The notes beneath the pieces are model-generated. The model was given only the letters and a program-made list of their open reading frames with translations, was not told the DNA's origin and searched no databases. From the IMG/VR virus record IMGVR_UViG_3300029258_002096, positions 1 through 52,541 of that record: 52,541 nucleotides of DNA; one strand, given 5' to 3'. Of the stretch, positions 1,976 to 52,457 are shown piece after piece. The position numbers and the translations under genes were made by a program. Position 1 is the stretch's first letter, and every line of letters begins with the position of its first letter. This DNA comes from a virus.

Positions 1976-2062
1976 GCCGTCCGCCCTAAATTTAGCATAA
2001 GCCGCGCGAAGGCATAGAAACAAATGCAAATATTTGTTATGTGCCGAAACGAAAGGGGTTTT

Positions 2063-2335
2063 ATGAAATTGAGAGAATACACAGATGAACAGATAGATAA
2101 ATATGGGAATGATTTTAACATAGATGTAATAAGAGAGGCTAATATAGATTTTAAAGAATGGTATGATCATAAAAAGTATCTTTGGAAAAAACCAACTAAA
2201 GATTTACCATGCCAAATATGTTATGAATGGCGGAGATTTCCAAAAGGACAAAGACATTTTGGGTATGCTTGGTGGAGAATTTGTAGTAAGGAATGTACGT
2301 GCTCCCACCATAAAGAAGAAGTGTGGATGGCATAG
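2063..2335 (+). CDS. cassette-encoded hypothetical protein
   Basis: ATG 2063 after AAAGGGG RBS, inside cassette 2036-2344; stop just before the inverse core site. Confidence 0.65.
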   Translation: MKLREYTDEQIDKYGNDFNIDVIREANIDFKEWYDHKKYLWKKPTKDLPCQICYEWRRFPKGQRHFGYAWWRICSKECTCSHHKEEVWMA

Positions 2336-2337
2336 GC

Positions 2338-2444
2338 ACATAACGTCTGTCATAATGTGCCGGTGGAGTTGTGAGGCTGAACCCGATTTCGGCGGATCTC
2401 TTCCTCGGTACAGGGCGGGGGTCACATTCATGACATTGTTATGC
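2338..2444 (+). other. attC-like site (107 bp)
   Basis: ACATAAC...TGTCATAATGTGCC pairs with GG[T]CACATT[C]ATGACA...GTTATGC; two unpaired bases 6 nt apart. Confidence 0.85.
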
Positions 2445-2478
2445 GGCGAAACGAAATTATAAAAAGGAGAAAATTGCA

Positions 2479-2736
2479 ATGTATGACTACAATGTTGAGA
2501 AAAAAAAGATATTTACGGATGAGGGACAACGTGAGTTTTTGAAAGTTAGAGATAAGGCAAGACAGCTTCTGGATGAGGGTGGGGCATTCATGATGTTTTC
2601 TGCGCTTACGGATATTTCCGGTGACACATCATGGACAATGATGGCTTATGTTGACAGGCTTGTTGAGCTTGGTGAAATACGTGAAATTACAAAACCTGGG
2701 GTTGCGGGGCAAGACCGAGTTTTTGTAGCCGCATAA
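2479..2736 (+). CDS. cassette-encoded hypothetical protein
   Basis: AAAGGAG RBS; stop TAA lies within the inverse core GCATAAC. Confidence 0.75.
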   Translation: MYDYNVEKKKIFTDEGQREFLKVRDKARQLLDEGGAFMMFSALTDISGDTSWTMMAYVDRLVELGEIREITKPGVAGQDRVFVAA

Positions 2737-2948
2737 CGTCAATGCTCTGCGGTGAAACGGCGGGGTAAGAGAAAGGATAAAAAAATGGAATTTCCAGAAA
2801 TTGATAGAAAATCATGGTTTTATCAGAATTGCAAGCGTAATCGCAGGGTTGGTGCAAAGTGCTGTGATGTATGCCCTTTTAAGGAGGGTATTGAAGATCA
2901 GGAAAGCGGTGTTGGGCGGGTTTCATCCGTAGCAGCAACGGGTTATGC
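2731..2948 (+). other. expanded attC-like site with 161-bp loop containing a gene start
   Basis: Left arm TGCTCTGCGGTGAAAC 2743-2758 pairs with GTTTCA[T]CCGTAG[C]AGCA 2920-2937; GCATAAC/GTTATGC ends. Confidence 0.75.
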
Positions 2949-3147
2949 CGGGCCGGGCAGTGAGGAAGGGACGGGCTGGCGGCTTACTGACGAAGAAAAG
3001 CCGATGGAAGAAGGATACAAAATGTGTTCAAACGGAAAAGGATTGTTACCATTTTTCGCTATGTACAGGGACGGTAATTTTTATCTTGACATGGAATTTA
3101 CTATACCGAAATACTGGCAAGAATTACCTAAGCCGCCAGAGGCATAA
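2785..3147 (+). CDS. fusion protein: Cys-rich N-terminus plus DUF551-like C-terminal domain
   Basis: WRLTDEEKP...YWQELPKPP is a DUF551-type W..P/W..LP.PP pattern; frame runs through the attC right arm; ATG 2785 follows AAAGGA. Confidence 0.65.
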   Translation: MEFPEIDRKSWFYQNCKRNRRVGAKCCDVCPFKEGIEDQESGVGRVSSVAATGYAGPGSEEGTGWRLTDEEKPMEEGYKMCSNGKGLLPFFAMYRDGNFYLDMEFTIPKYWQELPKPPEA

Positions 3148-3343
3148 CGCTAATTATAACCGGCTTGAGGCCGGGAGGTAAAAATGGATTGGGAACAGAT
3201 AGTTCAAGAAATGCTTAGTTGTTATTCAAATAAAAAATATTGGTATAAACATTTAGTTGGAAGAAAATGGGATATTGTAAAAGTTGCAGAGCATTTGCAA
3301 AAAAAGTTTGGTGGGGCAAGTCCGGTTCATAATCAAGTTATGC
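3142..3343 (+). other. expanded attC-like site with 149-bp loop containing a gene start
   Basis: ATTATAACCGGCTTG 3153-3167 pairs 15/15 with CAAG[T]CCGGTT[C]ATAAT 3317-3333; GCATAAC/GTTATGC ends. Confidence 0.8.
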
Positions 3344-3519
3344 CTGGCCGGGAAGATGCGGAGCGGAAGGGCAATCAGGGCGATATAATTGTCGGCAAGT
3401 ACAAACTTTGCGCTCATAATGCCGAAAACGGGCAAGTATGGCTTAAAGTGTGTAAGACTGGCGAAGGCGTTTTGCTCGGAGAGAAAGAAATTGAAGAATT
3501 ATATTTAAAACATTTTTAG
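3184..3519 (+). CDS. hypothetical fusion protein spanning an attC right arm
   Basis: GGAGG RBS; ASPVHNQVMP segment is encoded by the attC arm. Confidence 0.65.
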   Translation: MDWEQIVQEMLSCYSNKKYWYKHLVGRKWDIVKVAEHLQKKFGGASPVHNQVMPGREDAERKGNQGDIIVGKYKLCAHNAENGQVWLKVCKTGEGVLLGEKEIEELYLKHF

Positions 3520-3530
3520 CCCTGATTGGG

Positions 3531-3607
3531 GCATAACGGCTTGCGTTTAACCGGCAGAGGCAAGGACGTGGGCAGGGTGGCTGTCCGTGTTCTAACGCTG
3601 GTTATAC
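3531..3607 (+). other. attC-like site (77 bp)
   Basis: GCATAAC; GCGTTTAACCGGCAG vs CTG[T]CCGTGTT[C]TAACGC; GTTATAC. Confidence 0.8.
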
Positions 3608-3646
3608 GGGTTTGCCCTTTACCCTAAAAATATAAAGGAATGAATT

Positions 3647-3958
3647 ATGTGTAAACATAAAAGACTTGAATTGCGGGGGCATATCAGACCCGAAAATTTA
3701 TCAAAAAATGATATGTGGATTTCGGATTTATCTTTGGTTTGCATGGATTGTGGAGCACATTTATTGTATACCCCTAACAACCTTAAAAATATTATTAATA
3801 TTCCACATCCAGATAAATCTAATTGCAAACACCCATCAAATGTATTATCCTATGATTTGTGTGGTTTCGGAAGATGGACGTGTCTACAATGTGGGGAAAG
3901 AGGTATTTCATCTCCAGCATCTAAATTGGAGATAAGAACCTCTTGCAAACACGTATAA
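3647..3958 (+). CDS. cassette-encoded Cys/His-rich hypothetical protein
   Basis: AAAGGA RBS; CKH, CMDC and CLQC motifs; stop within inverse core GTATAAC. Confidence 0.7.
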   Translation: MCKHKRLELRGHIRPENLSKNDMWISDLSLVCMDCGAHLLYTPNNLKNIINIPHPDKSNCKHPSNVLSYDLCGFGRWTCLQCGERGISSPASKLEIRTSCKHV

Positions 3959-4021
3959 CGGACTGGTAATAACCTGAAAAACCGCTACACTGAATTTTAG
4001 GTTATTATACAGACGTTTAAT
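3953..4021 (+). other. degenerate attC-like site
   Basis: GTATAAC; GTAATAACCTGAAAA vs TTTTAGGTTATTATAC; right core degenerate (GTTTAAT). Confidence 0.5.
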
Positions 4022-4198
4022 TAATGGATGGGAATTCCAATTGATATATGATAATATTGGAGATTATTGCAAGGAGGAAACTACCTTATTTAAGCTGTGC
4101 CCTTTTTGCGGGAAGCGTTTTTAATCAAAACGGTTGAAAATAGATAGGTTGTGGAAGTATGGAAATCCGTAAAACGAGAAGTAGTGGGGTGTAAGAAT

Positions 4199-4609
4199 AT
4201 GAAATATACTCAGGAAGTTGTTGATGCTATTGTAGCCAGCCTAAGAGAAGGCGTACCCATAAAAAAGGTATGCGATCTTGTGGATATTAGTGAGGAAACA
4301 TTTTATGCGTGGCAAAGAGAAAAACCTGAATTTTCTGAGGTTGTAAAAAAAGCGCGTGCTGATAAAATAAAAGATATTTTAAGCCATATACGTACAGCGG
4401 GTGTGGGTGAGACAAGGGTACAAGTTCAGTGCCCGGATTGCAAGGCTAAATTTGAAACAACAATCACTTTACCCACAAAGGCGTGGCAGGCATTAGCATG
4501 GATACTTGAACGAACGGAGAACGAGGACTTTGGACGTAGGTATCAAGTAGGCGGAGGCAAGGAACCCATTAAACATATTATAGAGTTTGTGGATGGAGAC
4601 GATACATAG
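4199..4609 (+). CDS. terS: terminase small subunit
   Basis: N-terminal HTH (IKKVCDLVDISEETFYAW...PEFSEVVKKAR), AWILER motif, overlaps terL; start set at ATG 4199. Confidence 0.85.
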   Translation: MKYTQEVVDAIVASLREGVPIKKVCDLVDISEETFYAWQREKPEFSEVVKKARADKIKDILSHIRTAGVGETRVQVQCPDCKAKFETTITLPTKAWQALAWILERTENEDFGRRYQVGGGKEPIKHIIEFVDGDDT

Positions 4610-5882
4610 GATAGTCATTCCTGGTTATACAAATCCCAAAACTGGAAAGAGACACGAAGAACAAAAGCGATTCGTTGAAAGTGCCACTAAAAGGAAAATC
4701 GTCAAAGCTGGAAGGCGTGGTGGCAAAACTATTGGGTGTGGGAAAATAGCATTACATGGGTTTAGAGATGGAAAGAGGGTATTATATGGAGCTCCTACAG
4801 TAGAACAGGTAGGGGCTTTTTGGCATTTCATTAATACGGTTTTAGAGCCTGTTATATCAGAGAAGATATTATTCAGGGACAAGAATTTACATATTATTGA
4901 AGTGCCAAATACGGATATTAGGATAAAGGCTAAAACGGCTTGGAATGCAGATACACTAAGGGGTGACTGGGCGGATATACTCATTCTTGACGAATTTCAA
5001 TTAATGAATGAAGACGCCTGGGAGATTGTTGGTGCTCCGATGCTTTTAGATAACAATGGTGATGCTGTTTTTATTTTTACCCCCCCAAGTTTTAGGATGA
5101 GGGGGGTTACTAAAGCCTTTGATCCCCGCCACGCTTCTAAAATGTTCAAAAAAGCACAGAAGGATACATCTGGTCGCTGGGAAGCATTTCATTTCACGAG
5201 TTACGCAAATCCATTTATTGACGAACGGGCCCTTGACGAAATTGCTATAGATATGACCCAACTTGCCTATAAGCAAGAAATCTTAGCCGAAGACATTGAT
5301 GACGTTCCCGGAGCCCTGTGGACACAAGCAATCATTGATAATACAAGAGTCAGTGAAGCACCAAGAATGAAAAGAATCGTTGTAGGTGTCGATCCCCAAG
5401 GAAAAAAGAAAGATTCATCGGAAACGGGTATTATTGTTGCTGGACTTGGGTATGATAATCATGGATACGTTTTGGCGGATTATTCTATTAATGCGAGACC
5501 GGAGGGGTGGGCTGAAAGCGTTACGCAAGCTTTTGAGGAAAACGAAGCAGACAGAGTTATCGCAGAAAAGAACTATGGTGGTGATATGGTCAAGAGTGTG
5601 ATTCAGTCAGCGGGGCCTAATTTACCCGTTAGATTGATAACAGCATCACGGGGCAAGACAATACGGGCCGAACCCATATCATTCCAATATGAAGAGGGAA
5701 ACGTACACCATGTTGGCATATTCCCAAAATTGGAAGATGAAATGTGTACCTATACACCCGGCAGCGGCTGGAGTCCCAATAGGATGGATGCCCTTGTTTG
5801 GGCGTTAAAGGAATTGTTACCCATAAAAGGCAGGGTATCTTCTTCTCCTGTCAAACTTGGTGAACCAAGACCCATAGATTAA
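4593..5882 (+). CDS. terL: terminase large subunit
   Basis: Walker A AGRRGGKT, Walker B ILILDE, nuclease VGVDP and NRMDALVW. Confidence 0.95.
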   Translation: METIHRIVIPGYTNPKTGKRHEEQKRFVESATKRKIVKAGRRGGKTIGCGKIALHGFRDGKRVLYGAPTVEQVGAFWHFINTVLEPVISEKILFRDKNLHIIEVPNTDIRIKAKTAWNADTLRGDWADILILDEFQLMNEDAWEIVGAPMLLDNNGDAVFIFTPPSFRMRGVTKAFDPRHASKMFKKAQKDTSGRWEAFHFTSYANPFIDERALDEIAIDMTQLAYKQEILAEDIDDVPGALWTQAIIDNTRVSEAPRMKRIVVGVDPQGKKKDSSETGIIVAGLGYDNHGYVLADYSINARPEGWAESVTQAFEENEADRVIAEKNYGGDMVKSVIQSAGPNLPVRLITASRGKTIRAEPISFQYEEGNVHHVGIFPKLEDEMCTYTPGSGWSPNRMDALVWALKELLPIKGRVSSSPVKLGEPRPID

Positions 5883-5919
5883 GAAGGGGGTTATTATAGA
5901 TACCAAATTAAATCAGGGG

Positions 5920-6141
5920 TTGTTAAACCTTGCACAACATATTACAAATATGTGCATAGAGGATTTGAGTGGAGATTCAAATAAATGGAATGTAGTCGGT
6001 GTTATTATTCCAGATGATACATTATTGGCAATTGTGAAATATGATAATGGGAAACAGGCAAGAATTACTGGATTGTGGGCATCTAAATTGAAGAGACTAA
6101 GTTGTGGGGATGGGGTTGATGATTCCGTCTCTGAAAAGTAG
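5920..6141 (+). CDS. hypothetical protein
   Basis: ORF track; start uncertain. Confidence 0.4.
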   Translation: MLNLAQHITNMCIEDLSGDSNKWNVVGVIIPDDTLLAIVKYDNGKQARITGLWASKLKRLSCGDGVDDSVSEK

Positions 6142-6176
6142 CCGCCATAACAAATAGCTGAAGAAAGGAAAATGAC

Positions 6177-6374
6177 ATGACAGCAGGGGTAGAAAAGATT
6201 TGGGCTGTATATAAAAGATGTTGGCCGAATAGAATTGTGGCTTTATATAAGGACGAAGAAGCCGCATTAGAACATTCTAAAATCAGGAAAAATTACAAAA
6301 CAGAATGTTGGGCCGTATTTGAGAATTGTGACCAATCTATGGAATATTACATATGGAATATTAAAAATAGGTGA
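6177..6374 (+). CDS. hypothetical protein
   Basis: AAAGGA RBS; 65 aa. Confidence 0.5.
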   Translation: MTAGVEKIWAVYKRCWPNRIVALYKDEEAALEHSKIRKNYKTECWAVFENCDQSMEYYIWNIKNR

Positions 6375-6590
6375 GGAAAAGTTTTTGATCTGGTTAAAAT
6401 AGTGAAAAGGGAAAATGCGCGAAACAACCAAGGTGAGGCATGATGAAATCCGCCATGTGTTAGAGGGGCGGATAGAAACATTAAGGCAGCGTGGCGTACG
6501 TGATTACGTCCGGCGGGCTTGTGAGGATTTGTCCAAAGAGGTCGGCTATACAGCGAGGACATTAAGGGATTGGTACTATGAAATCTAATA

Positions 6591-6884
6591 ATGGAGCAAT
6601 GTTTGAAGATGAACAAATATAAAAAAATAAAAGAATGGATGTCTGAAACAAATAGCAGTAGCGGGTTAGTCAGTGGTGGGAATCAGGGAAAGGGTGGGCC
6701 ACAAAATGCGGGTGGGGTATGTAAATGGACATATCGAACACTTGGGGATTATGACCCATATCATACAACAAGTTGTGGAAATGATATAACATTACATCAG
6801 GGTTGTGAATGGGTTGAAACAGATTATAAATTCTGTCCTTTTTGTGGCAATAAAATTGTGGGGAAGCATTTTGTGTGTGGCTAA
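6591..6884 (+). CDS. Cys-rich hypothetical protein (CKW...TSCG...CPFCG) fused across an attC right arm
   Basis: TAGCAGTAGCGGGTTAGTC at ~6653-6671 resembles the right arm at 2930-2948; stop in GGCTAAC 6879-6885. Confidence 0.6.
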   Translation: MEQCLKMNKYKKIKEWMSETNSSSGLVSGGNQGKGGPQNAGGVCKWTYRTLGDYDPYHTTSCGNDITLHQGCEWVETDYKFCPFCGNKIVGKHFVCG

Positions 6885-6954
6885 CGCCGCCAATAACCAG
6901 GCGGCTGAGGAGCGGAGCGACGAAGACGATCCGCGTTAATTAGCCTTGTTATGT
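6879..6954 (+). other. attC-like site (76 bp)
   Basis: GGCTAAC...AATAACCAGGCG...GGAGCGGAGCGACG...TCCGCGTTAATTAG...GTTATGT; classic attC layout with GCGGAGCG centre. Confidence 0.8.
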
Positions 6955-7290
6955 TTTTACTTTGGAGATAACGATGATTAGCAAAAAATTTGGGGAAGAT
7001 TTTAACAGCACCCGTGGCGCACTTACCTTGGATGTTTCAGAAGTAACGGACTCCGATGCTACGGGTGGAGTCCATACGAAAACACACGCAGACGGATGGA
7101 CAATTACAGGTGAAGTACACGAGGACTATTACACATGGGTTAATTCATTTAGTGCCACACACCCTGAATACGGAACGGTGGCTGGTGACTTTGAAGATGA
7201 AGTAACGGCAACCTCTGAGGAAGGGTTTAAGCACTTCTGGCAGCACCATCGGCCTACTGAGTGGGACTATAGTAATATTTAAAACATAAC
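6948..7290 (+). mobile_element. integron-like gene cassette between terL and portal
   Basis: GTTATGTTTT 6948-6957 is the exact reverse complement of AAAACATAAC 7281-7290. Confidence 0.8.
6974..7282 (+). CDS. cassette-encoded acidic hypothetical protein
   Basis: GGAG RBS at 6964, ATG 6974; fills the cassette. Confidence 0.75.
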   Translation: MISKKFGEDFNSTRGALTLDVSEVTDSDATGGVHTKTHADGWTITGEVHEDYYTWVNSFSATHPEYGTVAGDFEDEVTATSEEGFKHFWQHHRPTEWDYSNI

Positions 7291-7438: not shown

Positions 7439-8791
7439 TTGGATATAAACATCTCGACTCGCCCCTTCAAGGTAAGATTGCGAAAACCCCAACCCCCTAA
7501 ACCCCAAAGACAGGCATCTGCAACATCGCAGACACGGGAAACCTACGAAAGTGGAATATCTATATTTAATGCCTATAATCCCCTGAAACACAACATGGGG
7601 GCCTACCGTGAATTGAGGGAAAAAATACCCTTCTTCAATGTAGCCATAAAGAAACTCGTACAGCTTATTGGTGACCCGATATTTGATTCTCCATCCGATT
7701 CCGTAAAAAAGAAAATAGAAGACTTTGTTCAAAAAGTTCAGGTAAATCGCTTTGGCAGAGGATTGGGTTCTTTCTTAGACGAATTAGAGGATTCAGCTTT
7801 TGAAGTGGGTGGTGGTTGGGGAGAACTTGTACCAACAAAAACAATGACAGATGTTCATCGTTTGAAAATAGCCTCTGCCGAATCTATGTGTTTTATAAAA
7901 GATGAAAAGACGGGCGAACTTGTTATCGGCACTTATAAAGACAATCATTTTATGCCACTGCCTGTTGAAAATATGGATTTGATTTATTACTTGGCTTTTG
8001 ATCGAAGACAGGGACATCCGCAGGGTTATAGCTTGCTTTATTCTTGTATGTGGCCGAGCCAGGCATTTTTGCGATGGGAAAAATCCTTTGAAAATCAAGT
8101 GCAGAGATTCGGGGATATATCTCTCGTCGGTGCTTTTGCCCCACCCGAGGGTGGAACCGTTGAGGAAGCAGATTATACAAGAGATAAATTCATGGAGCAA
8201 TTGGGTAAACTTTCAAAACTGAAAAGGCGCGGGAATGTAACCGATATCGGATTAAGTATACCGCCTGGTGGTACGTGGGATATAAAAACATTGGGCGCAG
8301 ATGCAAAGTTAATAGCAACCAAAGATTCCGTCAGAACGCTTTTAGAGCAATTGATCGCAAATACCGGCCTTCATCCTTCGTCCCTGGGAGTCCATTGGTC
8401 TACCTCCGAACGTATGTCGGTAATGCAAAATTTATTGCTAATGTCTAATCTCAACGCACAACGGGAACGGATCAATCCAATTGTTGAAAGAATTATCGAT
8501 ACCATGTTGGAGCTTACGGGTGATGCTGGAGCAGAATGGAGCATGAAATGGCCTGAAGTTATGTTATTGGGGGAAACCGAACGAGCCGATGCAAAAAAGA
8601 GCAATTGGGAAGCCATTAAAAATATGCTTGAAGCTCTTGAAATGGCTATTGCCTACGGATGGGCTGATGAAGAAAGTGCAAGGGAAACATTGGACAGAGA
8701 GGGTTTTGACGTAACTAAGTTACCGTCTAACTGGTATGCAAAGGTCAAAGAAAGATCGTATTTAGCAAGAATGGCAAGGGAAATAGAATAG
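7439..8791 (+). CDS. portal protein
   Basis: 450 aa between terL and gp7-like gene; TTG start with CGGAG RBS; size and synteny. Confidence 0.8.
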   Translation: MDINISTRPFKVRLRKPQPPKPQRQASATSQTRETYESGISIFNAYNPLKHNMGAYRELREKIPFFNVAIKKLVQLIGDPIFDSPSDSVKKKIEDFVQKVQVNRFGRGLGSFLDELEDSAFEVGGGWGELVPTKTMTDVHRLKIASAESMCFIKDEKTGELVIGTYKDNHFMPLPVENMDLIYYLAFDRRQGHPQGYSLLYSCMWPSQAFLRWEKSFENQVQRFGDISLVGAFAPPEGGTVEEADYTRDKFMEQLGKLSKLKRRGNVTDIGLSIPPGGTWDIKTLGADAKLIATKDSVRTLLEQLIANTGLHPSSLGVHWSTSERMSVMQNLLLMSNLNAQRERINPIVERIIDTMLELTGDAGAEWSMKWPEVMLLGETERADAKKSNWEAIKNMLEALEMAIAYGWADEESARETLDREGFDVTKLPSNWYAKVKERSYLARMAREIE

Positions 8792-13556: not shown

Positions 13557-14705
13557 ATGGCTTATACACCAAGAATTGACCCCATGAAAAGCTCTAAAGT
13601 TGTAGAGGCATGGTATCCCAAAGACGGACTCGAATCCGGTATGTATAAACATGCAGCTAAAGATGGCAAGTCTTTTACTATGTTTCTTGAGGAGCTGAAA
13701 TCTGAAAAAATGGGGCAGCAAACTATTTATGACGGGCTTTCGCTTTCTCAGATATTCGACAAAAAGGCAAAAATGAGAGCAAATGGCGAGACCCCCCCCC
13801 TAACTGCTTTTGAGGAAGGCTTGAAAGCATGTGGTATTCGTTTCGACGGTATCGGAACCGATAATATAGTCGGGAAGTTTTTCCAGTTTTCCGGAGCCGA
13901 CGTTCTTTTCCCCGAAGCAATTTCTACGCAAGTTTTTGCAGGTCGCAAAAAAGATAATATGGTTCCGATTTTTGCTGCTCGTGAAACCATGCTTGATTCA
14001 ATGACTTATTACAAAATTTACATTGAAACGGCTGAGGCGGATGAGCAAACTTCAAAATTAGAACCACGCGAAGAAATGAAGGAAACGAAAATCGTCGTTG
14101 GCAAACAGACGGTTACTCTTCAGAAATTCGGCACCTATTTGACACAGAGTTATGAAGATATTAAACAAATGCGCCTGAATATTTTTGCTGTTGCCCTTGA
14201 TCGAATTGGTTTACAGATTAAAGTTGATGAAACCGATGATATGTTTTATACTATGATTAATGGCGACGGCAATTCAAACACGCCGGGTGCTACTGCATCT
14301 GCCGATGCTTCGGGAGTAATTGATGGCGAGGAAGTGACGAAAGTTCGCACGATTATGAGTTCTCCGTATCAGGTTTCCGTACTTGTTGGCAAAAAGGCCG
14401 GTGTCCGTAAATGGATCAATGCTCTTGCGGATTATACAAATCCTTACGATATGCGAAGTTTCACCCAGGAGGTTGTGCCACAGTTAGTTATGCCAGTTAT
14501 GTACGAGTGGGATACCAGTACGATCACAACTTCCCATTTTTACGGTGTTGACAAAAATTACGGCATTGAGCATCTAACGATGGGTAGTGTATTGACCGAA
14601 ACCGAAAATCTAATCCGACAGCAAATCAAGGGTACTGCTATTAGTTATGCAGCGGGGCATGCAATAATTGACGAAAACGCTGTTTGTGATTTTGATTTTT
14701 CGTAA
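13557..14705 (+). CDS. major capsid protein (HK97 fold)
   Basis: 382 aa; synteny; KFGTYLTQSYEDIK...LDRIG...E-D-DMF pattern; strong AAGGAGG RBS. Confidence 0.85.
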   Translation: MAYTPRIDPMKSSKVVEAWYPKDGLESGMYKHAAKDGKSFTMFLEELKSEKMGQQTIYDGLSLSQIFDKKAKMRANGETPPLTAFEEGLKACGIRFDGIGTDNIVGKFFQFSGADVLFPEAISTQVFAGRKKDNMVPIFAARETMLDSMTYYKIYIETAEADEQTSKLEPREEMKETKIVVGKQTVTLQKFGTYLTQSYEDIKQMRLNIFAVALDRIGLQIKVDETDDMFYTMINGDGNSNTPGATASADASGVIDGEEVTKVRTIMSSPYQVSVLVGKKAGVRKWINALADYTNPYDMRSFTQEVVPQLVMPVMYEWDTSTITTSHFYGVDKNYGIEHLTMGSVLTETENLIRQQIKGTAISYAAGHAIIDENAVCDFDFS

Positions 14706-19235: not shown

Positions 19236-19781
19236 ATGGAACAAAACAGCAAATATTATGACGAAGTTTACAGGTACTCTGAAGACTATAAAGTGCATTA
19301 TAGGCGATCACCATACTATCCTATTTGGAATGTTTTTGTAAAAAACATGAACCCCAAAATGAGAATCGTAGACTTGGGTTGTGGGCCTGGTCAATTTGCG
19401 AAATATTTACGGGATGAAAGTTTCCAAGATTATATCGGCATTGATTTTTCGCATGTAGCCATTGATATGGCGAAAAAATTAGTGCCGGATTATACTTTTA
19501 TTTGCGCAGACTTAAATACTTGTCCGTTGCCCGATGCAGACTATTATGTTTTGTCCGAAGTCTTGGAACACCTTGAAAAGGATATTGCTTTAATTCAAAA
19601 AATACCATTCGGCAAAAAAGTTGTTGCATCGGTTCCCTGTTTTGACAATCCTGCTCATGTAAGAACATTTAAAAATATAAACGATGTTACAAAAAGATAT
19701 GGAAAATATGTTGTGTTTGATGTACTTGGTCAAGTCGGATTGTTTTTTGTGTTTAGCGGAGAAATGAAAAGGGAATTCTAA
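19236..19781 (+). CDS. class I SAM-dependent methyltransferase
   Basis: IVDLGCGPG, GIDFS and SEVLEHL motifs. Confidence 0.85.
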   Translation: MEQNSKYYDEVYRYSEDYKVHYRRSPYYPIWNVFVKNMNPKMRIVDLGCGPGQFAKYLRDESFQDYIGIDFSHVAIDMAKKLVPDYTFICADLNTCPLPDADYYVLSEVLEHLEKDIALIQKIPFGKKVVASVPCFDNPAHVRTFKNINDVTKRYGKYVVFDVLGQVGLFFVFSGEMKREF

Positions 19782-24086: not shown

Positions 24087-27000
24087 ATGCCTTTCGGGTT
24101 TGGCAGTATCGGTGGTGTGGGTGACATTGTTGCATTTGTTAAACTATCCGGAGCGGATAAATTTAATAACGATCTGGACCGCTTAAATCAACGTGTGTCT
24201 AATTCCGGTCAAGTAATGAACAGGGCTATGAATGCCACGTTGCTTGCAGGTGCTGCTGCATTTACGGCTGCGACGGTTGCTGCGTCGAAGTTTGAAGCAC
24301 AAATGGCAGATGTCAATACATTACTTGATGTATCCGAAAAAGAATTTGAAAATCTCAATCAAGGTGTACTGAACATTGCTAAAACTGTTCCCACTTCAAT
24401 GTCTACATTGACAAAGGGCTTGTATGATTTAATTTCCGCAGGGGCCGAATCTTCACAATCAATTTCTGCTCTCGACTTAGCCGCACGTGCCGCAACGGCT
24501 GGCATTTCTGGTGTTGATGTTGCAGTTAGGGCGGGCATGGCTACAATTAACGCCTATGCCTTAGATATTGGAGAATTGAGCAGAATTTATGATTTGCAAT
24601 TTTCAACGGTAAAAAAGGGTGTTTTGACGTATGCCGAGTTATCGAATGCAATAGGGAATGTTTTACCATCGGCCTCAAATTTAGGCGTTGTACTTGAAGA
24701 CCTATACGGTTCCATTGCAGCCGTGACAAAAGCCGGTATTGATGCTCAATCTGCCACAACTTATTTAGCACGCGCTTTTGAATCTATGACGGAAAACAGG
24801 GAGAAATGGGAAGCATTGGGAGTTGCGATATTTGACGCAACGGGCAAATTTAGGGGGTTAGAGCCAGTTATCGGAGATTTGGCAAAATCGCTACAGGGTG
24901 CTACGGTAGAGCAAAGAATAATGAAACTTGAAGCCCTTGATATGGAAAAACGTGCAGCTAAAGCAATTCTGACAATGGTCAATAATTATAAGGGATTCAA
25001 AAAGACACTTGATGCTGTAGCAGATTCACAAGGTGCAATGAATGATGCTTTTGAAAAACAGATGGATACATTTAAAGCGCAGGCTGGAATAATTAAAAAC
25101 AATCTTCAAGTTGCGTTTATCGAACTTGGCCGATCCGTACTTCCCGTTTTAACGGATATGTTTAGGGAATTAAATAAGCATCCAGAAACCATTCGTACTA
25201 TTGTCTCGGTTGTAGGGAAATTAGTAATAACTCTTGGTGGAGCTACTGCTGCGCTTAAGGGTGTTCGGCTTGCCATGTCTGCGGTTAAAGGGATACAAGC
25301 TTTGTGGATGGCTTCATTTGGCCCATTCGGTATAGCTATTGCAGGCGTAACGGCTGGATTAATTGCATTAAATGAAATTGCAAATAAACGCCATGAACAG
25401 GCTTTAGCGCAGATAGATGCAATAGGTGAAGAGATTAATGAAGTGCGGGTGCTTTCCTTGCGTTATGATGAATTGAAAGATAAGGCAGTATTAACAAGAG
25501 CAGAATCCGAAGAATTAAAAACAATAACAGAGAAATTAACAAAGGCATTTGAGGCACAGGGCTTAGACGTTTCAAATCTTACTGGAGCACTCACACAATT
25601 AACCCCCCTGTATTTAAAATTAAGAAAAATAGAGCTCCAGGAAGCTCTATCTGAAGTTGAAAGAAAAATTGGAGCTGTTGCCATGAAAACAAACGTCCTG
25701 GCAACAGCTCTTGGTGGCCCCATATCTCTGTTTAGCGGGCTTCGGGATATTGTAGATGACACACAAGCTGGAGCACTAAAGAGATTAAACAACCAAGCCG
25801 AAGATCTTAAAAGTAGATTGGAAGAACTTGAAAATCCACTTGCAACAACATCTACTGAAGTTGAAAATGTGGGCGATGTTTCAAAGAATGCTGGAGACAA
25901 AATATCCTCAACAATAAAACCTATTTATGATATGGCCATAAAGACAAAAGAATTAAAATCTGCTATGATAGATTGTGCCGATGCAACATTGCAACACGAT
26001 GAACACGTAAAAGCCTATGAAGAACATTTGAGAAAAGCAAACGATACAACCCAAAAAGCGAACAACAATTGGATCGACTTCGCCCGCCTCATTGGAGATG
26101 TAACAGACAGGATGGAGGGTGATTTCGCCCCTGCCATAGGCAATATCGCAAACCTTATTGCTTCATTTGCAAGTCCAAGTGCAACATTCTTGAACATTTT
26201 CAATATTTTTGGTGCGATCTTCGATGCCTTTACCGGCAAGACTGGAACGCTCAAAGTATCAATCGACGAACTAAAAGAGTCTTTCGGGGCTTTAGGTGAT
26301 GAGATCGAACGAGCGCAACAATCTGCTGAAGATTTAGGGAATGTTATCAGCTCTGCCCTTGCACAGCAAACAAGTCAAGTACTTGATGATACCTTGCAAC
26401 GCGCAGCCGATTTAGCTACGGAGATCAAAAGATTTGAACTCTTAGAAGTATCAGCCAGACGTCCATCTGGTTTGGGTGGCATTAATTGGGTAAATCCGTA
26501 TACTGAACGGCTTAAAGATTTGCGTATTGAATATGAAGCTACTCAAAAAGAAATAGAAGGTCTGACTAACAGCCTTCTTGAATTAAGCGATGCATTTCAA
26601 TTTGAGGTGGGATTTGAAAAACAGGCCGAGGATTTGGGAACCCTGACAGAACAAGCCTTAAAGATGAGAGATTATTTTGGTGACATTGAATGGCCTGGCC
26701 TTGAAACCCTTTTACAGGAAACCATTGACCAATCAAGAATTATGCTTGACGATCTTGATCCCACTTCACAAGCGTATGTTGATTTAAGCGATAGCATAAA
26801 AGAAGCAGAACTGGCTCTTGGCATACTCAATGGGACAATTGATCAAGAAACCCTTGATATAATAAAGAAAACCGAAAACGAAATAGAAGCATTAACTCAA
26901 GCAATTTCAGATTGGGAACAGGAACAGGCAAATATTGATGAACAACTAAAACGGGATATTGAGGGAATAAATAATGAAATAGAATCCTTAAATAAAACGA

Positions 27001-40149: not shown

Positions 40150-40536
40150 ATGGAAACCGTGACAAGTAACGACCCAAATGTCAGACTCACGATTAAAACG
40201 AACATCCAATTTAAAACCCTCGACGAAACCAAGCTCGACACAATCAAGCCTGTTGAACTGGCAAATGCTTTCCGGGCACTTGCCAATGGTATTATCGGTA
40301 GTTCTATGTATCTTTCGTCTGTCGGCGGCAAACCATGTGGCGTACCGACTCAGACACCGACTACATTGGCCTCCGCAAATATTGGCGACGGTCTGGTTGG
40401 CATCACACGGTTGGAACCCGGCCAATACCAGCTTACCATCAAGCGCGTCGTGGAGGCAGAATGTTACCATAATGGCAGTATCTCGCGCAGCCACAAGGCC
40501 GTCCACACGGATGACGGATGGCAGAAAGTGGGGTGA
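40150..40536 (+). CDS. hypothetical protein
   Basis: GGAGG RBS; ATG 40150. Confidence 0.6.
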   Translation: METVTSNDPNVRLTIKTNIQFKTLDETKLDTIKPVELANAFRALANGIIGSSMYLSSVGGKPCGVPTQTPTTLASANIGDGLVGITRLEPGQYQLTIKRVVEAECYHNGSISRSHKAVHTDDGWQKVG

Positions 40537-40628
40537 ACTATACAAGAGGGTTCTGGAGGAAATCAAAACTTGGCCTCCAGAGAGATTCACTCCCGAAGGT
40601 TGGCAGTATCACGACTGGAGAAAATGAC

Positions 40629-41030
40629 ATGCGACTCTGGCACGAAGATATAATCGATAAGCTACCAGACCGTAAAACGTCTGGCGATCCCAAGAAAAGC
40701 CAGTTGAATGGCCTGCATCGAGAATGCTGTGGAATGCGTGGAAAGGGCTGGGGCAAGAAAGGCGGAGTCGTCGGGTATGTCTGGAAATATCCCTACGCAT
40801 ATCTTTATTTGTATCATAAAAAAGTTATGCATGAATTGTTATGTCGGGGTTATAATATAGATAGACGTTGGCTTGATTCCTTTTATCGAGGGAAAAAACT
40901 GGGTTATGATTATTCACTCGAAATATCTGGACACTTAAAGTTTGACAGAACGCCTATTTTCCCAGAACACGACGAAGCCTATTTGCAAGAATGTATAGAC
41001 AACCTTAGAAAGAAAGGAGTAGAATTATGA
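40629..41030 (+). CDS. TIGR02328-like protein (pyrimidine-dimer glycosylase/DenV-related superfamily)
   Basis: MRLWH...[15 protein letters not shown]...YH..VM.E...RGY...W....YRGK...PEHD..YL.EC..NL..KG. Confidence 0.85.
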
Positions 41031-41623
41031 AAAAGCAGATTGAACTAAGGAATCGCTTTACTAACGAAATTATAGTAGCTGGTAAATATGCGGATATCAG
41101 GTGGGCTGTTGAGGAAAACAGGGCTGATCTCATGGGAGCCAACCTCCGGGGAGCCAACCTCCAGGAAGCCAACCTCCGGGGAGCCAACCTCCAGGGAGCC
41201 AACCTCCAGGGAGCCAACCTCCAGGGAGCCGACCTCCGGGGAGCCAACCTCCAGGGAGCCGACCTCCGGGGAGCCAACCTCCAGGGAGCCAACCTCTGGG
41301 GAGCCGACCTCCGGGGAGCCAACCTCTGGGGAGCCAACCTCCGGGGAGCCAACCTCCAGGGAGCCAACCTCCGGGAAGCCGACCTCCAGGGAGCCGACCT
41401 CCGGGGAGCCGATCTTGATTTTTCTTGCTGGCCCCTATGGTGTGGGTCGTTCGGTGTTATTGTTGACATAGACAAAATTTATCAACTTGCCTTACATATA
41501 TGCAAGTGTAGGGTTGAGGGAAGTAAAGAAGATAAAGAGGAGTTTGCCAAGATCAAAGATTTCCTCCGCCCTTATGCGAACAAGTTTCATCGAATTGGAC
41601 AAGATGTTAAAGGTGTAGAATGA
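41027..41623 (+). CDS. pentapeptide repeat protein
   Basis: about 20 A[N/D]L[R/Q/W][G/E] repeats followed by [10 protein letters not shown]. Confidence 0.95.
41136..41415 (+). repeat. 15-bp tandem repeat (GGAGCC[A/G]ACCTC[C/T][A/G]G)
   Basis: DNA-level repeat underlying the pentapeptides. Confidence 0.9.
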
Positions 41624-42400: not shown

Positions 42401-42488
42401 GAGGGAGTGGCGGAAAGGGTTAGACGCAACCCGACGGGGCGTGTATCGGGGCCACGATACAGTGCAGGTTCGAATCCTGCCTCCCTCT
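42401..42488 (+). tRNA. type II tRNA-like RNA (Leu/Ser-like body) lacking a canonical anticodon arm
   Basis: Acceptor GAGGGAG/CTCCCTC; D arm GGCGGAA...GG..AGACGC; variable arm GTATCG/CGATAC; T arm GCAGG-TTCGAAT-CCTGC; anticodon region only about 14 nt; no encoded CCA. Confidence 0.7.
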
Positions 42489-42622
42489 CTATGGAGCGGG
42501 AAAATATCACAGTTTCGGGGTTGTTGGCAGCAGAGATGCTGTCCCGCTCCTACTTCCCCCCCAAGGCGGGCACGGCTGGTATACTCGTGGATGCTGGCCG
42601 TGCCATATTTTAAGAGGCAAAA

Positions 42623-47276: not shown

Positions 47277-47405
47277 TCACTGCTACCTTATAGATGGAAA
47301 ATGCCCGTTCTGTGTTGTTCATGATGGCGAATCAATTTGTTGTGAAGTATCTGGGACGGGAAAACACGGAAGAGCGAAAGAGAAGCGAACGAGGTTGATG
47401 ACAAA

Positions 47406-48179: not shown

Positions 48180-48182
48180 ACC

Positions 48183-48761: not shown

Positions 48762-48936
48762 TTTTACAAAATACGAAACTGGATTAAAGGATGATCTTAT
48801 TAGGTTGCAAATTCCGTTACGCACAATAGAAGTTCTTATGGTTGTGTTTAAATCGATATATAAGCAGGGGGTGATAGATGGGATGGAGGAAAGCATAAAA
48901 AAATTTAGAGAACCAATCACAGAAGATAGAAGTTAA
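48754..48936 (+). CDS. hypothetical protein
   Basis: GGAGGAG RBS; ATG 48754. Confidence 0.55.
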   Translation: MDNFTKYETGLKDDLIRLQIPLRTIEVLMVVFKSIYKQGVIDGMEESIKKFREPITEDRS

Positions 48937-49415
48937 TGCCAAAACGTCAAACAGATACTGAAATATTAGACCAAGCTTGGTTTCAGGATATGTCATTGTC
49001 GTCAAAGGCTATTTGGTGGTTTTTGGAAAAGCGGGTGGATGTGGCCGGAATATGGAAATTAGATATAATCCAAATGAGACGTATTCTCAAATGTAAAATA
49101 AACATCGAACGCTTTTTAAGGGAAGTGAATAAAGACTACGACAAAATAACGGGTGAAAAAATAGATAAAAAAAGAGTCATACTTATAAACGGTGGCGCAA
49201 AAATATGGGTCGTAAACTTTCTCGCCTTCCAATGGGGAAACAGTAATAGCGTCGTCGATTTAAGATACGGTGCCGTGCGATCTGGCTTAAAAAAAATACA
49301 CGAACACGGTCTTCTGTCAATGGCATTAAAGGAAGGGTTTCTAAGGGTTCGGAAGGGTTCGGAAGGGGTAGAAGAAGAAAAAGAAATAGAAAAAGAAATA
49401 AAAAGACTTATCTAA
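48936..49415 (+). CDS. putative replication initiator/organiser N-terminal-type protein
   Basis: KR..DT....WF..S...K..W.FL...D.AGIW pattern; acidic/basic tail. Confidence 0.6.
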   Translation: MPKRQTDTEILDQAWFQDMSLSSKAIWWFLEKRVDVAGIWKLDIIQMRRILKCKINIERFLREVNKDYDKITGEKIDKKRVILINGGAKIWVVNFLAFQWGNSNSVVDLRYGAVRSGLKKIHEHGLLSMALKEGFLRVRKGSEGVEEEKEIEKEIKRLI

Positions 49416-49530
49416 TATCTCTTATTATATATTTTAAATTATTGTAGATATTAGATGAGCTAAAGCTCAGGAGAAAAATAATGGATAAAAAAGATGGTTG
49501 GTTGATAACCATTAAAACAACTGCGAATAA

Positions 49531-49600
49531 ATATAACGCCGGGATCACCGGCAGGAAGGAGCGGAGCGCATGACTGTCCGTGTGAATCCCGATGTTATAT
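49531..49600 (+). other. attC-like site (70 bp)
   Basis: ATATAAC; GGGATCACCGGCAG vs CTG[T]CCGTGTG[A]ATCCC; GCGGAGCGC centre; GTTATAT. Confidence 0.8.
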
Positions 49601-49992
49601 GTCCCGCGTGCGGTTGGCATGGTCCGCTGACACAAACCGACAATGGGGTCTGTCCACGGTGTGAATATGAGGTAAACGGCGGCGAGCCCTACAGGCTGAT
49701 GACGCTAGCCGAACTTCGCGAGTCAGAACATGGGGCCACATGGTGTGATGTAGACATGCGCGAGTTTCTGCGCGCGGTGGCTGAGGTAGAAGCAGATAAC
49801 GTCAAGCGTCAGGTAGCCGTCTCGCGTCGGCAGACCAACAGCGCTCGTGAACGCGGCCCTTCATGTTGTAGCCCTCCATCCGCTTGTTCGGCATGCCCTA
49901 CGTGTGGCCGCAGCAAGCCGGATTGGGCGGAGTATTGCTCTGAGGAATGTCGCTATGAGGACGAAACGGGGCATCCTGGTTGTGAATACTGA
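49570..49992 (+). CDS. Cys-rich ORF reading through two attC-like sites
   Basis: ATG inside attC 49531-49600; CPACG, CPRC and CPTCG modules. Confidence 0.55.
   Translation: MTVRVNPDVICPACGWHGPLTQTDNGVCPRCEYEVNGGEPYRLMTLAELRESEHGATWCDVDMREFLRAVAEVEADNVKRQVAVSRRQTNSARERGPSCCSPPSACSACPTCGRSKPDWAEYCSEECRYEDETGHPGCEY
49794..49892 (+). other. degenerate attC-like site
   Basis: AGATAACGTCAAGCGTCAGG...GCCCTCCATCCGCTTGTTCGGC; left part parallels 50384-50402. Confidence 0.55.
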
Positions 49993-50022
49993 GCGTCAAC
50001 TATTCGAGAATCTCGAACAGTT

Positions 50023-50080
50023 GCCGAACGGTTAGTTTCAGCGGTGCGCTTTTTGCATCCGCTGCAAACTTTTGTTATAC
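50023..50080 (+). other. attC-like site (58 bp)
   Basis: AGTTTCAGCGGTGC 50034-50047 pairs 14/14 with GCA[T]CCGCTG[C]AAACT 50055-50070; GCCGAAC/GTTATAC ends. Confidence 0.9.
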
Positions 50081-50107
50081 GGCGAACTTAACTAACAGGA
50101 GAAAACA

Positions 50108-50389
50108 ATGGAAAACAATAATCACTTAACACTTAAATGGGGCACACTGAAATCATGGAACTTTAAAGGCAATGAAGAAGCGTGCAAATTATTAAAACGT
50201 TACGGGGAAATCGGTTCATCATTCTCAGCGATGGCGCAAAATGATACGCCAGAACAAAAGGAAATAATTTGCAAGTTAATAGATTTGACACCAGGAGAAA
50301 TATATCTTGATTGGGACGGTGAATACGTTTCAAAAGAAAAAGCAAAAGAATATGTAATGAATTACGGCAAAGAAAAACAAGCCGTATAA
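50108..50389 (+). CDS. cassette-encoded hypothetical protein
   Basis: AGGAG RBS; stop inside GTATAAC. Confidence 0.8.
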   Translation: MENNNHLTLKWGTLKSWNFKGNEEACKLLKRYGEIGSSFSAMAQNDTPEQKEIICKLIDLTPGEIYLDWDGEYVSKEKAKEYVMNYGKEKQAV

Positions 50390-50440
50390 CGTCAAGGGTC
50401 AGGCGCGGCTTTAGCCGTCGCCTGAATCCGCTGGTTCGGC
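50384..50440 (+). other. attC-like site (57 bp)
   Basis: GGGTCAGGCGCGGCT vs AGCCG[T]CGCCTG[A]ATCC; GTATAAC/GTTCGGC ends. Confidence 0.85.
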
Positions 50441-50469
50441 TCCGGTTGGACTGGTGGAGGAGAGGACCA

Positions 50470-50976
50470 ATGAATCCAAAAGAAACACAACGCCGAGAAG
50501 AGATTGGTAAGATCGTTGCCAGCCTTGAACGGTTTGGGAAAATAGGCTGGTGGCAATTTGCGGCCTATCAACAGAAGAAATGGAGATTTGAACTTATATT
50601 ATATGTTATTGATATACTTTACGAAACAGAAAACTTAAGGAGGCGTATCCAGCATTTAGTTGAACAAAAAGAAATGGGCCAACTATACGGGGCGCTGACT
50701 TATTTTATTGATAAATATGCCGGAGAATATTCGGAGACACAGGGTCAAGAACAAAAGCAAGCCGCAAAGGAATGGGCCGACAAAATAGATATACCCATCG
50801 GCCAAAATCTTAAGTCAGACGATCAAATCCGGCTTGAAGGAGAACTTAAAAAACGCCAGCAGAGAGCGGATCAATATTTGCAGGACGGGGACATACATGG
50901 ATACAAAGACCTAAAGCGACAAATAAATAAAATAGAAATCCAGTTGAAGCGAATGGAAAAGCTTCAAAAATTTTAA
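50470..50976 (+). CDS. helical hypothetical protein
   Basis: GAGG RBS; ATG 50470. Confidence 0.6.
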   Translation: MNPKETQRREEIGKIVASLERFGKIGWWQFAAYQQKKWRFELILYVIDILYETENLRRRIQHLVEQKEMGQLYGALTYFIDKYAGEYSETQGQEQKQAAKEWADKIDIPIGQNLKSDDQIRLEGELKKRQQRADQYLQDGDIHGYKDLKRQINKIEIQLKRMEKLQKF

Positions 50977-51011
50977 GGAGGTACTGTTATACGTTTTCTT
51001 AGGAGGACTGA

Positions 51012-51425
51012 ATGGAAAATATACCTGAAAAAATATATTTACAAGTTGACCCTGAAAATGAACAACCAGAAAGTTTTGATGATTTGGCGGAAATAACATG
51101 GTGCAGAGATAAAATTAATGATAACGATATTGAATATGAATTAAGCGGGGTGGAATCGGGTCAGCTTGATATATTGTTAGCTGCCCGTTGTGCCACTTGT
51201 AAGCATTGGGGAGGGGATAAAAAACAATTAATGAAAGTACTTAATGAATATGATATTGAAACTATAAAAAAATATTTAGATGTTAAAGAAGGATGGGCAA
51301 TAGATGGAAAATGTAAAGAATTAATATGTGAATTAATATTTTATGCCTATGGGGCAGGGGTTGATGAAGTAGAGACACCTGCTGGTTTTAGCTGTAATCT
51401 TTATGAATCAGATAAGGGCAGCTAA
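51012..51425 (+). CDS. fusion protein spanning an attC right arm
   Basis: N-terminal IPEKIYLQ...TWC...DIEY module plus cassette module CATCKHW...; stop in AGCTAAC. Confidence 0.7.
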   Translation: MENIPEKIYLQVDPENEQPESFDDLAEITWCRDKINDNDIEYELSGVESGQLDILLAARCATCKHWGGDKKQLMKVLNEYDIETIKKYLDVKEGWAIDGKCKELICELIFYAYGAGVDEVETPAGFSCNLYESDKGS

Positions 51426-51616
51426 CGTCCAGTAATAACCGGCTGAAAGGACTAAGTGATGGATAGAAATCAAGTTATTGAAATTTTGGCAGAATTGCGA
51501 GAAACGGCAGATTACTTACCTACTGACCAAAAATATTTGGATGCTCTTGAACACGCACAGAACTTATTAGAAGAGGGCGGTGCGGAGCAAGGTCCGCGTT
51601 CTGCCGATGGTTCACC
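51420..51616 (+). other. expanded or hybrid attC-like site containing a gene start
   Basis: left arm GTAATAACCGG, right arm GG[T]CCGCGTT[C]TGCCGATG then GTTCACC; arms pair only partly. Confidence 0.5.
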
Positions 51617-51812
51617 AGTGGATGTGCCTGGGGAAAGTGCGGGACTTCAAGACGGGGTGGTGGCTATTGAAAAGAAATTACTTGATACAATTTACGCACA
51701 GATAAAAGGTGTTATTGATAATATGGAACTGCATCCAAAACAGTGTGGATATAAGTGCGCCCTATATGATACTTTTGAAAAATTGAAATTAATTTATGGG
51801 GTGGAGTCTTGA
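51456..51812 (+). CDS. fusion protein spanning an attC right arm
   Basis: GPRSADGSP segment encoded by the arm. Confidence 0.6.
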   Translation: MMDRNQVIEILAELRETADYLPTDQKYLDALEHAQNLLEEGGAEQGPRSADGSPVDVPGESAGLQDGVVAIEKKLLDTIYAQIKGVIDNMELHPKQCGYKCALYDTFEKLKLIYGVES

Positions 51813-51816
51813 AGTT

Positions 51817-52046
51817 GGTGAACGTTTAGGTTCATGTGCCAAATGGAGGACAAAATGAAGAAAAGGAAAATTTGGAATCGTTGTATTTATTGCGGCAGGT
51901 TTATTGGATTGGGTGAGTTTATGAGGGGTGAGGTAGAAACTGATTTTACACCAGACACTCACTTTACATACGAAAAAATTGAACATTATCACAAAAAATG
52001 TAAAGAAGAATGTGGGGATTTGGTCACGTGCTAACTTTGGTTATGC
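51817..52046 (+). other. expanded attC-like site enclosing a whole ORF
   Basis: GGTGAAC; GGTTCATGTGCC vs GG[T]CACGTG[C]TAAC; GTTATGC 52040-52046. Confidence 0.6.
51855..52034 (+). CDS. small Cys/His protein inside an attC loop
   Basis: GGAGG RBS; RCIYCGRFI...HKKC. Confidence 0.65.
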   Translation: MKKRKIWNRCIYCGRFIGLGEFMRGEVETDFTPDTHFTYEKIEHYHKKCKEECGDLVTC

Positions 52047-52049
52047 TTA

Positions 52050-52382
52050 GTGAATACCGGCCACAAGCCGGTGCTTATGAATGGCCAAAGGGCCAGAGGA
52101 GCGAAGATGAACGATAGATTAGACTGGCAACACAAGGGTGGGGTGCTTGACATACCAGATAGACATTTTGTCTATAATGTAAACTTTGATGCTGATGAAC
52201 CTTACATAACAATTGTTGATGCAGAAGATCCTCACACTGAAGAAAAAAAGATGTTAGTACCGAAGTCACTCGCATACTATTTAAGCACGCATGCTTGTGG
52301 ATCACGGAAAATGATGGAGAATTTTATAGAGCAAGGACGGCATGAGGTGCGGGTGGGGTTTCAAAGGCTATTGGGATTATAG
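52050..52382 (+). CDS. hypothetical protein (probable cassette gene)
   Basis: follows GTTATGC core; followed by truncated attC-like CACTAAC...ATAACCGGCAAAAAC...GTTTTTG[T]CC 52395-52437. Confidence 0.6.
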   Translation: MNTGHKPVLMNGQRARGAKMNDRLDWQHKGGVLDIPDRHFVYNVNFDADEPYITIVDAEDPHTEEKKMLVPKSLAYYLSTHACGSRKMMENFIEQGRHEVRVGFQRLLGL

Positions 52383-52457
52383 GCCCTTTGGCAACACTAA
52401 CATGAATAATAACCGGCAAAAACAAGCGTTTTTGTCCAAACATAAAGGAGATGAGCA

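Follow-up and report, generated by a model that had tools for sequence, protein, structure and literature searches.

A siphophage-like contig whose accessory genome is probably an array of co-oriented integron-type cassettes without an integrase of its own

The IMG/VR virus record IMGVR_UViG_3300029258_002096 was analyzed over the whole of its 52,541 nucleotides (nt; hereafter the window), in which every gene lies on the + strand. Based on Pfam and PHROG searches, the window encodes a small terminase (4151-4609), a large terminase (4587-5882), a portal protein (7439-8791), a capsid protein (13557-14705) and a tape measure protein (24087-28103), along with a tail fibre, an exonuclease, a NinG/Rap-like nuclease and a T4 endoV-like glycosylase. 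Next to these lie small genes separated by attC-like sites, which make up approximately one fifth of the phage genome and occupy positions 1-4021, 5883-7290 and 49531 to the end of the window, together with 4.9 kb beyond the window start. We consider it likely, with a probability of about 0.78, that the accessory genome of this siphophage-like contig consists of co-oriented integron-type cassettes without an integrase of its own. Such cassettes, with no integrase nearby, were the proposal of an earlier note on this DNA; its core has held, and its details on the strand, the crossover point, a host integrase and novelty have not. The core reading is supported by the geometry of the hairpins, by the complementarity of each cassette's own ends, by a duplicated cassette, and by homologues in a bacterial array and beside the integron integrase (IntI) of a provirus.

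On the + strand a cassette would read C, attC hairpin, GTTNNNN (R'') box, open reading frame (ORF) and NNNNAA box, and the hairpin would run from an unpaired spacer through the stem and loop to a 3' arm with bulges at 16 and 23/24, positions being numbered from the outer end of the GTT 7-mer. The + strand between an AAC (R') box and the next GTT box does fold as an imperfect hairpin closed by AAC and GTT, and in every well-folded site the single-base bulges of the 3' arm are at 16 and 23 or, in a three-bulge type, at 16, 20, and 24. Between the first and last bulge there are six paired bases, the far bulge is T in each case, and the sites have a conserved TCCG motif. Both the unpaired T and the unpaired C that had been described for these hairpins are confirmed. 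In bottom strands of known attC sites, the 5' box contains AAC, with the crossover between A and C, and the opposite arm carries the extrahelical bases, of which the first, usually G, is at position 16 and the last is a conserved T at 23/24; a 6-bp stem separates these two, and the unpaired spacer is 5-6 nt long (Nivina 2016). Our numbering was checked on the aadA1 attC (bases 3-60 of the 60 used match at 100%, and approximately 1,950 plasmids match at 99% or more), which under it has G16 and T23. The earlier note had taken the top-strand C as the counterpart of the extrahelical G of a bottom strand; it is instead extrahelical base 16 itself, and the coding (+) strand has the geometry of a recombinogenic attC bottom strand.

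We wrote a descriptor from the published definition (Nivina 2016), tolerating a single mispair in 12 and spans of 40-260 nt. In the 12 kb of accessory DNA it matched 14 times on the + strand and never on the - strand, against a mean of 0.8 and a maximum of 5 matches in 200 dinucleotide shuffles of the same DNA, and the bulges at 16 and 23-24 with the 6-bp stem are present in 13-14 of these + strand sites. Over the whole phage contig there were 18 matches on the + strand and two on the - strand, the background in the rest of the assembly being 0.037 per kb per strand; in 1.5 Mb of loci from terminase relatives the rate was 0.023 per kb, with no arrays. As controls, the descriptor found 11 real attC sites in four class-1 integron regions, all on the strand opposite the genes, with two stray matches in 40 kb, as well as two sites beside a Verrucomicrobial intI and 15 co-oriented sites in a bacterial array (G061:C21). 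Since the descriptor matches the gene strand in the phage and the opposite strand in class-1 integrons, the phage ORFs are inverted relative to those of classical cassettes. Altogether there are 13-14 strict and approximately 25 recognisable sites over some 12-15 kb, and with at least two attC sites and no intI nearby the region is a phage-borne CALIN (cluster of attC sites lacking integrase), by far the largest phage-borne attC array among those compared here.

The left part of the array opens at 1-144 with the 3' part of a duplicated cassette, recognized by its 100% identity to the other, 395-nt copy; the copy in the window ends in the R' box ...GGTGAAC at 138-144. The cassette body at 2036-2344 consists of the R'' box GTTATGTGCC, an ORF (2063-2335) and the R' box GGCACATAAC, and is joined by an attC of 107 nt (2338-2444; bulges C16/T23, from the fold and the descriptor) to the body at 2438-2737, in which the stop of the ORF (2479-2736) lies within the R' box. 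Two expanded attC sites, both C16/T23 and without a mispair, are found at 2731-2948 (218 nt), with a loop that holds the ribosome-binding site and ATG (2785) of ORF 2785-3147, and at 3142-3343 (202 nt), with a loop that holds the ATG (3184) of ORF 3184-3519. A 77-nt attC at 3531-3607, identified by the descriptor, is of the three-bulge type (C16/T20/T24), and with the body at 3601-3959 (ORF 3647-3958) the cassettes end ahead of the small terminase gene. An attC-like variant at 6879-6954, situated between the genes for the terminase and the portal protein, has the AAC/GTT boxes and TCCG but fails the descriptor because its T is at 25; it leads into the cassette body at 6948-7290 (ORF 6974-7282).

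In the right part, the attC at 49531-49600 (70 nt, A16/T20/T24) carries ATG 49570 in its loop, and the ORF from this codon (49570-49992) continues without a frame break across an R' box (49794-49800) and a degenerate attC that extends to 49892. The most canonical site is the 58-nt attC at 50023-50080 (C16/T23, no mispair), which leads into the body at 50074-50390 (ORF 50108-50389) and from there to a 57-nt attC at 50384-50440 (A16/T23, by the descriptor). Own-matching boxes at 51176-51426 flank the C-terminal part of ORF 51012-51425, and others at 51610-51823 surround the end of ORF 51459-51812; between them lies an attC-like site (51420-51616), the 3' arm of which has an exact 14-mer in common with an intergenic site upstream of the window. 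A weak expanded attC-like site with two mispairs (51817-52046) encloses a small ORF (51855-52034), and the attC at 52395-52514 (120 nt, C16/T20/T24) has ATG 52459 in its loop.

The window corresponds to G000:C10:4936-57387 plus 89 nt, and on this longer contig the same small-gene architecture runs the further 4.9 kb upstream of the window start. ENA holds the window as an independent contig with its start inside a repeat. The array continues over the contig break, as the R'' box of the site at 52395-52514 matches, over 10 bp, the R' box that opens G000:C10; an unsequenced gap lies inside the cassette that spans the break, to which a 638-nt contig contributes only 86 nt, all coding. When the proteins of approximately 25 cassettes were searched against Pfam and PHROG, none scored above the cut-off except two encoded upstream of the window: a Mom-family DNA-modification protein (100.5 bits; G000:C10:898-1512), inside the cassette region, and a DUF5131 protein (G000:C10:3648-4370), the gene for which is flanked by an own-matching 8-bp box pair.

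An exhaustive scan of the contig for inverted GTT...AAC pairs recovered 11 of the 12 modules that had been listed for it. The exact pairs are 2036/2344, 2438/2737, 6948/7290, 37129/37223, and 50074/50390 (10 bp each), 2942/3148, 3337/3537, 3601/3959, 49886/50029, and 51610/51823 (8 bp each) and 51176/51426 (11 bp). The twelfth, 36540/36703, was missed by the scan and is broken by a single mismatch within the AAC core itself (TAC). No attC-like hairpin was found adjoining either 36540/36703 or 37129/37223, and neither was counted as a cassette. The statement that the end of a module matches the start of the same module and not the following core held for the 15 cassettes: the own match is 8-11 bp in all of them, and that to the following GTT box 0-7 bp, apart from a single case of 9 bp. 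This own-end complementarity is that of attC cassettes, and the bacterial array G061:C21 has the same pattern. The partner GTT box is sometimes intracoding, approximately 200 nt before the stop, in linkers rich in Gly, Ser, and Pro.

We also considered that the pairs are chance matches or products of assembly. Contig-wide, the 8-bp GTT/AAC pairs are indeed only about twice as numerous as expected (51 against a shuffled null of 28, maximum 43), and the contig is metagenome-derived. However, of 13 AAC boxes defined independently, 9-10 match a box upstream over at least 8 bp, where approximately 0.3 would be expected, the descriptor matches are strand-specific (14:0) and far above those in shuffles, and the sequence is the same to the base in two independent assemblies and two public unitigs, leaving this explanation next to no probability. 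The contig has 13 pairs of at least 10 bp, which cluster in the accessory DNA, compared with a rate of 0.41 per 10 kb for the remaining assembly, and all GTTAT-type pairs of this length lie within the accessory regions.

Since the + strand is bottom-strand-like, the crossover is expected between the A and C of the box at the 3' end of each gene (AA|C), and not at G|TT ahead of the genes, where the earlier note had placed it. This position is indicated indirectly by an AAC-bounded repeat and by a unitig end at 51823. The repeat is a cassette of 395 nt that is present twice with 100% identity, its other copy being upstream of the window on G000:C10; the identity opens at TAAC and stops right after GAAC, all four flanks differ, and one assembly broke within it. 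The unitig, a public one from another run (L287), equals window 49539-51823; it starts 2 nt after an AAC box and ends exactly on the C (51823) of another. A second public unitig ends 12 nt beyond a GTT box, and as marks of cassette junctions the unitig ends are suggestive rather than clean. The exact duplication argues for recent activity of the array, which could be largely quiescent today.

The AA|C boundaries also bear on the claim that ORFs had been stitched together from two cassettes. Most of the ORFs that span a hairpin arm lie within one cassette under these boundaries, and it is the ORF at 49570-49992 that is a true two-cassette fusion. The arm-spanning ORFs within one cassette (at 2731-2948, 3142-3343, and 52395-52514) have both their ribosome-binding site and their ATG inside the attC loop, and translation of the 3' arm gives a linker. 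Different cassette proteins have short identical stretches in common in such Gly/Ser-rich linkers (6654-6700 and G000:C10:2099-2145; 2931-2945 and G000:C10:2099-2113), and these are the translated 3' arms of related attC sites.

Two cassette proteins have informative homologues. A homologue (54% identity) of the protein encoded at 2479-2736 is situated inside the 15-site attC array of a Verrucomicrobia genome (G061:C21), with the same layout of ORF and boxes, its own different 8-bp box pair, and C16/T23. That array (G061:C21:94600-102900) runs to the contig end, and the same genome has a partial IntI at a contig end (G061:C13:133550-133963; 184 bits over 137 positions); probably the two are one chromosomal integron split by assembly. 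Most of the ORFs in the array are on the classical (top) strand, and a minority, including the homologue, are on the bottom strand. The protein encoded at 50108-50389 has homologues in a Bacteroidales contig and in a viral contig of 334 kb, each flanked by different matching boxes of its own (8 and 9 bp).

A second homologue (51%) of the 2479-2736 protein is encoded in a 54-kb provirus, IMGVR_UViG_3300037590_000132. There it is followed by two attC sites with the phage's ATAACCGG / TCCGGTTCAT motif and C16/T23, and then by a cassette with a 9-bp own match. Approximately 700 nt further, on the same strand, is an integron integrase of 349 amino acids, with a TIGR02249 score of 283.6 bits (cut-off 265). 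The polarity of intI and attC is canonical in this provirus, but the ORFs are on the bottom-strand side as in the phage. The small integron is complete (L300:4983-8007), with the IntI downstream of the cassette ORFs on the same strand and followed by a P4-type primase, and a perfect 17-bp long-range hairpin (6604-6620 / 6699-6715) in the provirus encloses a start codon. A search of viral contigs for relatives of this IntI found only itself.

Several observations weigh against our interpretation. Relatives of the large terminase in IMG/VR and metagenomes are at best 62% identical, too distant to show gain or loss of cassettes, and have no arrays. The descriptor was written after the sites had been seen, with numbers derived from the literature and the controls as a safeguard. 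Of 13 phage sites, 10 have C and three have A as base 16, in place of the usual G; in the controls it is G in 10 of 11 class-1 sites and C in one, and in G061:C21 it is G in seven, C in six and T in two, and G at this base is therefore a tendency and not a requirement. As the site with C16 is that of the estX cassette of a class 1 integron (L279:4315-4385), C16 is compatible with a mobile class-1 cassette. Eight compact phage sites are 57-120 nt long with 5' spacers of 5-8 nt, but another five, at 190-232 nt, exceed the published 57-141 bp and have coding sequence with translation starts in their loops, and the junctions at 6879-6954, 51420-51616, and 50976-50986 fail the descriptor. Most phage boxes read GTTATRY rather than GTTRRRY, the second R being replaced by T; of the RYYYAAC / GTTRRRY consensus only AAC/GTT is invariant, and G061:C21 (GTTCGCC and similar) departs from it too. 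The 395-nt duplication could be an assembler's join of two strain variants, which would still place one cassette in two contexts. Finally, no IntI was detected on the contig, in the genome with which it was binned (98% complete) or in 115 genomes of the order of that genome (E ≤ 1e-30).

The lack of a recognisable tyrosine recombinase on the contig agrees with the earlier note, the PF00589 matches being confined to three other contigs of the assembly. In the assembly as a whole nothing scored above the TIGR02249 cut-off, the best match being Xer-like (87 bits), and there is no complete integron, with an intI (TIGR02249) and an attI beside the array. The suggestion that a host IntI acts in trans is consequently unsupported for the binned genome, although binning of a phage contig is weak evidence of its real host. 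The binned genome does have three Xer-like tyrosine recombinases, which raises the alternative that attC-shaped hairpins are used by another recombinase, either a host Xer-type enzyme acting on folded single strands, as for CTX phage, or an unrecognised phage enzyme. The exonuclease, a possible annealing protein and the NinG/Rap-like nuclease of the phage can yield single strands, and the box ...GCATAA / TTATGC... presumably resembles Xer-binding arms. We nevertheless judge this alternative unlikely, based on the fact that the 16/23 bulge geometry is specific to IntI substrates and that the same attC motif stands beside a bona fide IntI in the provirus, while the bin says little on the real host. 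In addition, the spacing of ATAA-type boxes varies from 7 to 11 nt, where dif-type sites have two 11-bp arms around a core fixed at 6 bp, the ground on which Xer/dif modules were rejected. Single-strand transposition of the IS200/IS605 type was rejected as there is no Y1 transposase (PF01797) on the contig, as were invertible segments, which explain neither the AAC-bounded duplication nor the 16/23 geometry.

Integron-type recombination would, as we picture it, involve an IntI-type integrase supplied in trans, which would insert, excise and duplicate cassettes on folded single-stranded phage DNA. Since the ORFs are inverted relative to classical cassettes, they would be read by phage transcription. 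All of the sites are on the transcribed sense strand, several of them in 5' untranslated regions or enclosing ribosome-binding sites, and attC sites are said to be weak terminators (Qi 2023, PMC9892861). The hairpins and gene-bracketing repeats might thus act as RNA, in the form of terminators, processing sites or a 5'-3' closure of cistrons, with a merely convergent likeness to attC. Such a role leaves unexplained the AAC-bounded duplication, the invariant AAC/GTT boxes with exact bulge positions at 16/23, and the same architecture round homologous genes in a bacterial attC array and beside an IntI; moreover, Rfam gave no match at its gathering thresholds, and we consider the RNA explanation very improbable. 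A covariance model of our own, built from 24 bacterial attC sites, was discarded because its 5' arms were misaligned and it had zero consensus pairs.

Clusters of attC in phages are not in themselves new, although the earlier note knew of none as an organising principle of a phage genome. A screen of 10,705 phage genomes by Qi et al. (2023, PMC9892861) identified three complete integrons and 17 CALINs, each with two or more sites, and IntI1 recombined five of the six phage attC sites tested. These CALINs, like the one described here, combine attC sites and cassettes without an integrase in phage genomes. However, the published CALIN of TJE1 has only 1-3 descriptor matches, in the classical orientation, whereas here all sites have the coding strand as their bottom strand. 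The kind is therefore known, and what differs is the scale (approximately 25 sites over 12-15 kb), the uniformly inverted ORFs, C16, the start codons in attC loops and the lack of an IntI in the putative host lineage.

Among the integrons compared, the provirus IMGVR_UViG_3300037590_000132 resembles the phage in the ATAACCGG ... TCCGGTTCAT motif, C16/T23, the homologous cassette gene, ORFs on the bottom-strand side and one ATG in a loop; unlike the phage, it has its own IntI and only 2-3 sites, and the two have nothing else in common. Bacterial chromosomal arrays (Cury et al. 2016, PMC4889954; here G061:C21, 94.6-102.9 kb) likewise have co-oriented T23 sites, own-matching boxes, small ORFs of unknown function and one gene in common with the phage, but G061:C21 is part of a bacterial chromosome, with most ORFs on the top strand, a mixed base 16 and the IntI gene elsewhere in the assembly. 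The attC sites of class 1 integrons (aadA1, aadA2, qacG2, estX, and others) have the AAC/GTT boxes, the unpaired spacer and the bulges at 16 and 23/24, 6 bp apart, and differ in their GTTRRRY boxes, their length of 57-99 nt, their location downstream of ORFs on the other strand and the G16 of 10 of 11 sites.

In two other systems, too, small accessory genes lie between repeated, structured sites that favour their shuffling as modules. The PeSL cassettes of T4-type phages are promoter-plus-stem-loop direct repeats that are used in homologous recombination, and the pdif (XerC/D) modules of Acinetobacter plasmids rely on double-stranded sites of 28 bp, in which the 6-bp core is fixed. To our knowledge, neither is described as having AAC/GTT boxes with bulges at 16/23, which sets both apart from the phage array.

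Integrons have been regarded as gene-capture platforms of bacteria, and reports of attC sites in phages have so far concerned rare clusters with a minimum of two sites. The array in the present contig appears to be an organising principle of the phage accessory region, adjoining the packaging genes, with all cassettes oriented for phage expression; at least two of their gene families are also present on other viral contigs, in a bacterial array and in a provirus with an IntI. Phages and bacterial integrons may thus exchange small genes by a direct route, and such genes are candidates for host takeover or counter-defence. The array also shows that translation can run through attC arms and that start codons can be located in attC loops. 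A broader proposal, which we put forward tentatively and at somewhat less than even odds, is that the phage belongs to a phage-adapted branch of integrons, in which bottom-strand ORFs are expressed by read-through phage transcription and not from Pc, with translation often starting in the attC loop. Its cassettes would circulate among virulent-type phages, IntI-bearing proviruses and bacterial arrays, and nearly the whole accessory genome (approximately 25 cassettes) would derive from that pool. The sites at 50023-50080 and 2338-2444 offer concrete test substrates, and the provirus IntI is a candidate cognate integrase.

No match was obtained when 50,697 phage records were searched at the nucleotide level. 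Looking up the terminase and the duplicated ORF by exact protein sequence was equally negative, as was a DNA search of 60 related genomes. Two motif scans across viral contigs gave chance matches only. A repeat in one relative (L047) proved to be an unrelated palindromic operator.

Other features of the window lie outside the array. A class I methyltransferase (Pfam) is encoded at 19236-19781, in the middle of the structural gene block, and ARAGORN identified an 89-nt tRNA-Val (GAC) at 42401-42489, within a replication/recombination module. The T4 endoV-like pyrimidine-dimer glycosylase gene (40518-41030) adjoins a gene for a pentapeptide-repeat protein (41027-41623; 159 bits), which has internal tandem DNA repeats at 41123-41415.

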